Shown: positions 33,818-35,320 of the stretch, piece after piece
Position numbering within the stretch: position 1 is the stretch's first letter
Layout of the letters: every line of letters starts with the position of its first letter
Assembly (NCBI GenBank): GCA_977020255.1
Contig: CDROCS010000066.1
Coordinates: 62,001 to 126,000 of the forward strand
Source: Obrimoposthia wandeli
Taxonomy: Eukaryota
Reading direction: 5' to 3'
DNA length: 64,000 nt
Position numbers and translations under genes: made by a program
Notes under the pieces: generated by a model
The model's database searches: none
What the model saw: only the letters and a program-made list of their open reading frames with translations
What the model was told of the DNA's origin: nothing

Positions 33818-34117
33818 ATGTCCGAAGAATGCCCAATATGTTTGGAAGATCTAACCGAACGAAGAACAAGACCCGAAACCTGCAACCATTTACACCACGA
33901 GGAATGTTTATCGACATGGATCAGAACTTATGGACAGTTCGGACATCCAACATACCCTTGTTGCCCTGTATGCAGAAGACAATTCACAAAGTTCATCATG
34001 ATAGAACCCAACCAAGAGGATGTATATGTACAGGTGGTATTCTGTTGGAAGAATTTCGGAGAGTGTTGGTGTTATTACTGTTTGTCAGAACGACAAAATC
34101 CGACCACTTTTGTGTAA
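33818..34117 (+). CDS. RING-H2 protein 1 (putative E3 ligase) with C-terminal Cys motif
   Basis: CPIC...CNHLHHEEC...W...CPVC, then CWKNFGECWCYYC. Confidence 0.88.
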   Translation: MSEECPICLEDLTERRTRPETCNHLHHEECLSTWIRTYGQFGHPTYPCCPVCRRQFTKFIMIEPNQEDVYVQVVFCWKNFGECWCYYCLSERQNPTTFV

Positions 34118-34177
34118 ACATCACACAACCACCAGTCCGCAACCGAGCCCAAATTCAACATCAACCCTCTCACAGTA

Positions 34178-34483
34178 ATGTCTGGAGAATGTTCCATCTG
34201 CTACGAGAGCATCGTGGACTTCTACACCAAGCCCAACAACTGCGACCACCTCTTCCACGTCGAATGCCTCGAGACGTGGATCCCCATCGCCAACAGCAAC
34301 AATCCCCTCGACTTCCCAACCTGCCCGATGTGCAGAGCGACCTTCTCAGTACACTACGTGTACAACCAGGACAGCCTCCAAGCAGTGGTACCCATAGTAC
34401 ACTGCTGGAAAACTATCTGCGATTGCTGGTGCTCGTTCTGCGTGGAGGAGCGAAGCACAGGCCAGCCCAACTCCCAACAATAA
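34178..34483 (+). CDS. RING-H2 protein 2, paralogue of RING1
   Basis: CSIC...CDHLFHVEC...W...CPMC, then CWKTICDCWCSFC. Confidence 0.88.
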   Translation: MSGECSICYESIVDFYTKPNNCDHLFHVECLETWIPIANSNNPLDFPTCPMCRATFSVHYVYNQDSLQAVVPIVHCWKTICDCWCSFCVEERSTGQPNSQQ

Positions 34484-34822
34484 TCGAAGGTAACTTTCTG
34501 ACTTGAACGTTACATCATGAACTACCCTGTGTATCGCATACCGCGATAAATTAGCTACCATAATTGTAATCATAATTGTATAATCTTGTGAACTGTAAAT
34601 TGACCATTACCATTTTTATGTTTGATGTTTAACTGAAATTGTAATTATTATACTGAAATTCTAAAAAGACAATTTTTATGCTTAGTGTGAATGTGTAAAC
34701 ATGCCTAAAATCGGAACAAAACTCGGTAGGATTAAAAAACTAAGGATTCGTTTTGAAATAAAATTTAAATTAACGATGAGAACGGTGAACCCCAAATTGA
34801 AAGGAATTATTTTCTTGTGCAG

Positions 34823-35320
34823 ATGAAGTGTTCCGTCTGCCTCGAGAAAATTTGGACGGCATCGGCATCCCCTGTCGGCTGCCGTCACAAATTCCACGAG
34901 TCATGCCTCTATACTTGGGCCCGACTTCGACCCGAAGGACACGTCAATTGTCCGTTGTGCCGTGCTCCCTTCGCGGAATGGACACTGCAGTGTCGAGGGC
35001 GCCACAAGGGCACCCATTCGCTCACCAGCTGTATTGGTGGCGAGCACTGCCATTGTCCCAATTGTATCGCGCGCCGTCGCGATGCAAAACTCGCCCTCCG
35101 CGAGAAATATCGGTCAACCCGCGACCACCGCTCATGGCAGCGTGGCCGCCAAATATGGCTCGAGAATCGCGGGGTGCACGGGCGATACACGACCCTTTTC
35201 CACCCAAACCAACACCTCACCATGAATCAACAGATGTCCCTATACAATGGCGGCCCACCATCGTATCCAGACCTACCACTGGAGCAGGTCTTGCTGTTCC
35301 TGAAGGACAGGAACGGTTGA
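34823..35320 (+). CDS. RING-H2 protein 3 with Cys motif and basic tail
   Basis: CSVC...CRHKFHESC...W...CPLC, then CIGGEHCHCPNC; ATG directly after acceptor TTTCTTGTGCAG. Confidence 0.88.
   Translation: MKCSVCLEKIWTASASPVGCRHKFHESCLYTWARLRPEGHVNCPLCRAPFAEWTLQCRGRHKGTHSLTSCIGGEHCHCPNCIARRRDAKLALREKYRSTRDHRSWQRGRQIWLENRGVHGRYTTLFHPNQHLTMNQQMSLYNGGPPSYPDLPLEQVLLFLKDRNG

Follow-up and report, generated by a model that had tools for sequence, protein, structure and literature searches.

Three RING-H2 Genes Lie at the 3' End of a Gypsy Element

Within the window (the whole stretch of 64,000 nucleotides of Obrimoposthia wandeli DNA analyzed here), three small open reading frames (ORFs) encoding RING-H2 proteins, which we call RING1, RING2, and RING3, sit between the stop codon of a DUSP-bearing ORF (33697) and a long terminal repeat (LTR; 35632-37602). 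This LTR closes a Gypsy element that starts at 25459, has a 4-bp duplication (ATAG) on either side, and is inserted into another Gypsy remnant, which surrounds it on the opposite strand. The features of the locus are as follows.

25455..25458, + strand: left target site duplication (TSD), 4 bp, ATAG
25459..26708, + strand: 5' LTR remnant that includes a 65-bp tandem array; an internal deletion links it to RNase H at 26703-26708
26699..29269, + strand: pol remnant (RNase H, integrase, and downstream region), stop-terminated in the window copy
29270..33697, + strand: C-terminal part of the polyprotein, with two DUSPs (catalytic motif intact in one, the other degenerate) and several hydrophobic stretches
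33815..33816, + strand: candidate splice acceptor AG of RING1, 1 nt upstream of the RING1 ATG
33818..34117, + strand: RING1, RING-H2 plus Cys motif (34043-34081), 99 aa
33829..34506, + strand: 225-codon ORF that overlaps RING1 and RING2 in a different frame
34174..34175, + strand: candidate splice acceptor AG of RING2, 2 nt upstream of the RING2 ATG
34178..34483, + strand: RING2, paralogue of RING1, Cys motif at 34403-34441, 101 aa
34821..34822, + strand: candidate splice acceptor AG of RING3, abutting the RING3 ATG
34823..35320, + strand: RING3, RING-H2, Cys/His motif (35030-35065), and predicted helical C-terminal domain, 165 aa
35316..35384, + strand: 23-bp tandem repeat in three units at the RING3 stop, by eye like the tail-coding DNA of other alleles
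35632..37602, + strand: 3' LTR, TG...CA, with internal tandem arrays
35998-36005, + strand: TATA-like box in the 3' LTR
36099 and 36723, + strand: donor-like GT sites in the 3' LTR
37603..37606, + strand: right TSD, 4 bp, ATAG

An internal deletion running from the 5' LTR into RNase H has removed gag, env, PR, and RT from the window copy, and a stop codon at 29267-29269 interrupts its polyprotein; at least one other copy has an unbroken frame from pol into the region beyond this stop (29270-33697). Because its two LTRs are identical over the first 213 nt only, the window copy is probably a recombinant. Five other copies, read as separate tiles, spanned about 23 kb (about 23.3 kb between the LTR ends in copy C2748), and their polyprotein comprised about 5,400 codons as estimated from coordinates. 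The domain order of this polyprotein was Gag-CCHC, ubiquitin-like, weak Bcl-2, Monjiviricetes-type fusion protein, two PR, BIR, RING-HC of the IAP type, RT, RH, IN, and two DUSPs. The fusion glycoprotein (PF24664, E 1.6e-92) was located in a 3,139-aa open stretch running from the CCHC to the integrase, which places env in frame between gag and pol, and the BIR matched Pfam at E 1.3e-10; the ubiquitin (E 0.001) and Bcl-2 (E 0.058) matches were both below the Pfam cut-off, yet were placed as in the order of Burro, the giant Gypsy element of planarians. In one tile (L034:582-9998), two aspartic-protease domains flanked a BIR-(BIR)-RING cassette resembling a captured IAP gene.

The hallmarks of Gypsy elements, namely TG...CA LTRs, a TSD, a PBS-like site, and the order PR-RT-RH-IN, were all observed. 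LTR pairs were 99.3%, 99.8%, and 97.6% identical in three copies and matched only partially (83-93%) in two further copies; a 4-bp TSD flanked the window copy and three of the five fetched copies (one was mismatched, and in one an end was not found), and a PBS-like TGG was present 8 nt after the 5' LTR in all four ends found. The middles of the LTRs (35632-37602 and 25459-26708) were hypervariable, with tandem arrays that differed between copies (34, 47, 65 bp, and others), and both LTR ends were conserved. No typical polypurine tract was observed upstream of the 3' LTR. Thus, the RING genes are 3' accessory genes of an env-bearing, Burro-like Gypsy LTR element of about 23 kb; their reading as host genes or as a DNA-virus insert was rejected, as they are fixed parts of an LTR retroelement.

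The layout of this element is that of Burro (GYPSM1) as given in the available sections of a review (PMC6431247), though shorter. Both have one huge polyprotein with Gag-CCHC, ubiquitin/SUMO-like, Bcl-2-like, and BIR domains, a mononegavirus-type fusion env in frame between gag and PR, thousands of copies, and accessory ORFs. In contrast to Burro, the RING-bearing element is smaller (about 23 kb with 2-kb LTRs vs. >30 kb) and carries DUSPs and an IAP-type RING-HC, and MATH/TRAF, ankyrin, and dUTPase-like domains had no Pfam match in the element parts scanned, whereas the review used HHpred (PMC6431247); these domains vary among Burro-like elements. Stand-alone 3' RING-H2 genes, the Cys motif, and a tail with a SUMO-interacting motif (SIM) are not described for Burro in those sections.

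Other sequences in the window included a diverged tubulin-like host gene with introns (14959-18751), the opposite-strand Gypsy remnant split by the insertion of the RING-bearing element (21900-25458 and 37603-39500), a non-LTR RT fragment (41284-42171), and an inverted pair of repeats of about 900 bp lying 25 kb apart (20226-21125 and 45489-46357). Elsewhere in the assembly, tandem 270-bp arrays of diverged ubiquitin-like units were observed (L111, contig C2050, with similar hits in C2592, C1456, and C4682), with in-frame stops between the units in the one array read, and the host SUMO gene found was split by introns. One multi-copy cox1 had AAA at four conserved Asn columns and ATA at four Ile columns, which fits the flatworm/echinoderm code, and foreign cox1 was also present. 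The assembly is contaminated, as it contains numerous contigs with bacterial cox1 as well as mitochondrial sequence from a second animal (L108).

RING Domains Are Followed by a Shared Cys Motif

All three ORFs passed the Pfam cut-off for zf-RING_2 (E 2.9e-9 for RING1, 5e-9 for RING2, and 2.1e-8 for RING3), and their alignment showed no variation at any of the eight C3H2C3 ligands, at the Trp that follows ligand 6, or at the Arg that follows ligand 8. RING E3 ligases are recognized by an E2-contact Trp, a loop hydrophobe, a Pro, and an Arg after ligand 8; the full ligand set together with these four residues was kept in 32/36, 37/39, and 31/37 intact distinct copies of RING1, RING2, and RING3, respectively. 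Downstream of the RING, four Cys were invariant across the three ORFs, with the spacing C-x6-C-x-C-x2-C in RING1 and RING2 and C-x5-C-x-C-x2-C in RING3, and this second motif was kept in 36/36 (RING1), 37/39 (RING2), and 34/37 (RING3) intact distinct copies. A codon pattern for the Cys motif of RING1 and RING2 matched the genome 12,005 times, compared with 0 matches in a reversed control, and a pattern for the RING3 motif matched 5,303 times, compared with 0 in the control; thus, the motif is not a product of chance. An earlier note on this DNA had described three RING-H2 ORFs, each with a complete C3H2C3 RING and the E2-contact Trp, followed by a shared C-x5/6-C-x-C-x2-C motif, and the coordinates, Pfam, the alignment, and the genome patterns all agree with that description.

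RING1 and RING2 share 37% identity and lie in one frame at a distance of 360 nt, and therefore likely derive from an old tandem duplication; RING3 was 28% identical to RING1. When the regions after the RING were searched against Pfam as six pieces, five matched no family at E<=10, and the remaining one had a lone match to SoxD at E 0.09, below the cut-off. Sequence matches in the PDB essentially ended with the RING and did not extend into the Cys motif. The structure model of RING2 was poor (pLDDT 53.7), and that of RING3 was weak over the Cys/His motif (pLDDT 38-48), with values of 74-91 over residues 101-160. The RING3 model could be aligned to solved RINGs (Z 5-6.6, rmsd 1.5-4.6), and the fold matches to viral and cellular proteins were weak: no match reached E<=0.001, and the short ones with a low rmsd spanned the RING only; as RINGs filled the match lists, the C-terminal helical domain of RING3 was barely probed by this search. 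Judging from the sequences, it is reasonable to infer that the four conserved Cys (plus a His in RING3) bind zinc, and the motif may define an undescribed RING-associated zinc module.

Abundant Copies under Purifying Selection

A DNA search of the assembly yielded 4,301 candidates; scoring covered 40 of these, and every full-length match among them was 97-100% identical. The codon-pattern matches (RING1 plus RING2 in the first pattern, RING3 in the second) correspond to about 6,000 element copies in the assembly, a figure that haplotigs could inflate. Selection was analyzed in 60 loci, comprising the 20 best window matches and 40 loci hand-picked for diversity (first 100 listed pattern matches). 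RING1 and RING2 were present in all 60 loci, which had been selected for carrying them, and RING3 was present in 56; intact ORFs were found for 45/60 RING1, 43/60 RING2, and 37/56 RING3. After removal of broken copies and duplicate DNA, 36 RING1, 39 RING2, and 37 RING3 sequences were retained.

The codon model gave omega values of 0.557 (RING1), 0.135 (RING2), and 0.205 (RING3), figures that are approximate owing to recombination and relatedness among the copies, and for each gene it fitted better than omega=1 (2dL 9.7, 135, and 523, respectively). Over the Cys motif, omega was 0.139 in RING1, 0.029 in RING2, and 0.191 in RING3. Pairwise pN/pS agreed with the codon model, with an interval for the RING1 motif (0.08-1.58) that includes 1. 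Constraint on RING1 was modest (0.56), and its linker had an omega of 1.07. These results indicated that the three RING genes are under purifying selection. The earlier note had named, as an outcome that would speak against it, a motif known as a domain of a host RING family in ORFs free of purifying selection; no known domain was matched, and purifying selection was found.

The 225-codon ORF overlapping RING1 and RING2 (33829-34506) was considered as a fourth gene and rejected, with an omega of 1.3-1.8 in its own frame and no amino-acid conservation. This frame was open in 32 of 40 copies with intact RING1 and RING2, and ran longer in 4 more; stop avoidance over RING1 had a P of about 0.005-0.03 per copy, the copies not being independent, and T before stop-forming codons occurred in 0/142 vs. 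208/495. The overlapping frame may explain the high omega of RING1. A read-through fusion of RING1 and RING2 was also rejected, given the conserved stop of RING1 and the separate candidate acceptor of RING2.

Candidate Splice Acceptors Precede Each RING Gene

Each RING ATG was located 0-2 nt downstream of a conserved AG, which was kept in 56/56 (RING1), 54/55 (RING2), and 52/53 (RING3) in-register copies. Upstream of RING3, the last 4 nt of the acceptor were invariant in 15 distinct upstream sequences, and most of positions -30 to -9 varied (majority base 30-80%). As a conserved AG lies at or within 2 nt of each ATG, DNA conservation suggests that RING1-3 are translated from spliced subgenomic RNAs, and the ORF3s of LTR elements are typically expressed via spliced messages, according to the available part of a study of bdelloid rotifers (PMC5408684). 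The TATA-like and donor-like sites of the LTR were at no single fixed place across copies, and the LTR start was not matched by the pattern used in 19/46 loci. Four runs from one sample, with the kind of data unrecorded, contained no GT..AG joint among the 15 joints listed out of 21, which is evidence neither way.

RING3 Is Exchanged between Copies and Often Carries a [VI]DLT Tail

In 5 of the 10 pairs examined, copies that were 0-9% apart at the four-fold sites of RING1 and RING2 carried RING3 alleles that were 41-49% apart; RING3 is thus a swapped, deeply divergent module. A C-terminal [VI]DLT tail was observed in 13/20 diverse full-length RING3 alleles and in 0/17 full-length copies close to the window, and the window allele itself has no such tail. 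The tail motif was written in 10 different codon quartets, and its pattern matched the genome 3,018 times, compared with 4 in the control, which is roughly half of the element family. The tail-less window subfamily is abundant and young, and the tail is therefore dispensable for spread.

As far as the available sections of the literature describe them, VDLT forms the core of SIM2 and SIM3 of RNF4, and VIDLT the core of the PIAS SIMb (PMC3901395); a VIDLT-containing motif in adenovirus E1A binds Ubc9, and the combination of RING and SIM is the design by which ICP0 lifts SUMO-dependent repression (PMC3685863). At the motif level, a SIM core and a RING are thus joined in one chain in the 13 tailed alleles. 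Drosophila piRNA silencing needs SUMO (10.1101/533091), and planarian PIWI silences Burro (PMC8532177), as stated in the parts of these sources that were available.

Relatives Carry Other Cargo in the Same 3' Slot

A HMMER search against 1.84 billion representatives returned 3,944 hits, and the Cys motif followed the RING in none of the best 150, which were screened. No candidate homologue was found in a search near the length of the genes, and a longer search gave no hit. Among viral contigs, 232 pattern matches were obtained, none encoding a relative of the RING genes. The earlier note had tied small stand-alone RINGs to large DNA viruses rather than LTR elements, a link that is not supported for genes fixed in an LTR retroelement, with 0/232 related viral-contig matches and weak fold matches. 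Its further suggestion, that the DUSPs and RINGs form a virus-like kit for host manipulation, survives insofar as both are part of a wider toolkit of ubiquitin, apoptosis, and phosphatase functions; the DUSPs are polyprotein domains and not stand-alone genes, and the special link to large DNA viruses was not retained. The literature searched gave no account of 3' RING-H2 genes or of an encoded SUMO-targeted ubiquitin ligase (STUbL) in an LTR element, and the available parts of PMC13238120 and PMC11410931 add no information about such ORFs; the extended data or supplements of the original Burro paper may annotate them.

A sister Burro-like family from this genome, 47-51% identical over segments of env and pol and with 7,214 first-look candidates, had in this slot a 131-aa coiled-coil-like ORF and a 389-aa 3'-5' exonuclease-like ORF (Pfam E 2e-4), each behind an AG (L116-L121, L106), and no RING ORF in the eight tiles read. 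A metagenome relative (L081; 59% integrase identity) had an unrelated 446-aa RING-HC ORF (2798-4138) in the slot after the polyprotein, on a contig that ends before any LTR could be identified; a 693-aa ORF after the polyprotein (L081:4367-6448) had no Pfam match. These results demonstrated that relatives fill the same 3' slot with other cargo. Similarly, LTR elements of bdelloid rotifers carry family-specific cargo after pol in ORF3, expressed from spliced messages (PMC5408684). The available part of that study lists env, GDSL, DEDDy, coiled-coil, or TM as the rotifer cargo and does not mention a RING, and this cargo showed no clear departure from neutrality (PMC5408684). The three RINGs described here, in contrast, are under purifying selection.

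Possible Roles of the RING Genes

Taken together, selection has preserved the three ORFs as 3' accessory genes of this Gypsy element, and we consider it likely that they are translated from spliced subgenomic RNAs and encode RING E3 ubiquitin ligases, which are predicted to degrade host restriction proteins. An LTR-initiated transcript would splice from an LTR donor to one of the three acceptors, yielding one short mRNA per gene; the RING would recruit a host E2, and the Cys motif would bind a third zinc and form part of a substrate or dimer surface. Through [VI]DLT, tailed RING3 alleles would bind SUMOylated proteins in the way ICP0 does, with chromatin-silencing factors as plausible targets. 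Against this proposal, the RING-less sister family thrives, as judged from its first-look candidates and the tiles read, the donor-like sites have no fixed place, and the constraint on RING1 is modest.

A more specific version, which we advance tentatively and to which we give somewhat less than even chances, is that the element encodes a SUMO-targeted ubiquitin ligase: the IDLT-tailed RING3 would destroy SUMOylated silencing factors on the chromatin of the element in an ICP0-like manner, would be produced alongside RING1 and RING2 from spliced subgenomic RNAs, in the manner of complex retroviruses, and would owe the persistence of its ancient, recombining alleles to an arms race with the host. 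The RING of ICP0 is of the RING-HC type, and RING3 has no homology with ICP0 beyond the RING. Like tailed RING3, ICP0 and VZV ORF61 are RING proteins of mobile elements with SIM-like sequence and a proposed role in removing SUMO-dependent silencing; however, ICP0, a large DNA-virus protein, contains seven SIM-like sequences, whereas the tailed RING3 is a RING-H2 protein of 176 aa with one tail motif (PMC3685863, available sections). RNF4 and other cellular STUbLs likewise join a RING to a VDLT/IDLT core, as in tailed RING3, but in RNF4 a cluster of four SIMs at the N-terminus precedes a C-terminal RING, whereas RING3 has the reverse order and a single motif (PMC3901395, available sections). 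That the tail is a single short motif, whereas RNF4 depends on several clustered SIMs, argues against the SUMO reading, as do the binding of Ubc9 by the similar E1A motif and the abundance and youth of tail-less copies.

The RINGs might instead act on the proteins or particles of the element itself, through Gag/Env ubiquitination for budding or through polyprotein turnover, with the tail binding the element's own ubiquitin-like domain or merely localizing the protein. The element does encode a fusion glycoprotein and a ubiquitin-like domain, and ubiquitin aids the budding of enveloped retroviruses; however, the diversity and swapping of RING3 (alleles 41-49% apart beside RING1/2 0-9% apart) fit host conflict better than housekeeping, and the env-bearing sister family has no such genes in the eight tiles read, so that we regard this alternative as unlikely. 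Still less probable in our estimation is that the small RINGs are noncatalytic decoys or adaptors, which would tie up host E2s or partner RINGs, or function solely as heterodimers, thereby damping host ubiquitin or apoptosis signaling alongside the BIR, Bcl-2-like, and DUSP domains. RING1 and RING2, at about 100 aa, indeed contain little besides the RING and the Cys motif, and the polyprotein bears domains of anti-apoptotic type; nevertheless, all E2-activating hallmarks are conserved, including the Arg after ligand 8, and RING3 has an additional predicted folded domain (residues 101-160). That the genes are merely hitchhiking cargo, recently acquired from a host RING family or a large DNA virus, is very improbable and, as to hitchhiking, already largely refuted. 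In its favor, small stand-alone RINGs are common among BFVD matches; against it, the genes are under purifying selection, none of the 232 viral-contig matches encoded a relative, none of the best 150 of the 3,944 hits joined RING and motif, and neither homologue search gave a candidate or hit.

The common view of animal transposons is that they passively undergo silencing by piRNAs and heterochromatin, and to our knowledge few counter-defenses encoded by transposons are known. The Burro review, in its available sections, put forward interference with ubiquitination and apoptosis of the host as an activity of such elements, and called them hard to test (PMC6431247). What is new here, and absent from the earlier note, is the AG behind which each ATG sits, a candidate splice-acceptor pattern, and the swapped RING3, which in about 3,000 copies has a tail resembling a SUMO-binding motif. 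As the genes encode three stand-alone proteins of 100-180 aa with natural tailed and tail-less alleles, their ligase activity, SUMO binding, and targets are directly assayable, and the shared AG-led 3' slot shows how elements swap accessory genes.
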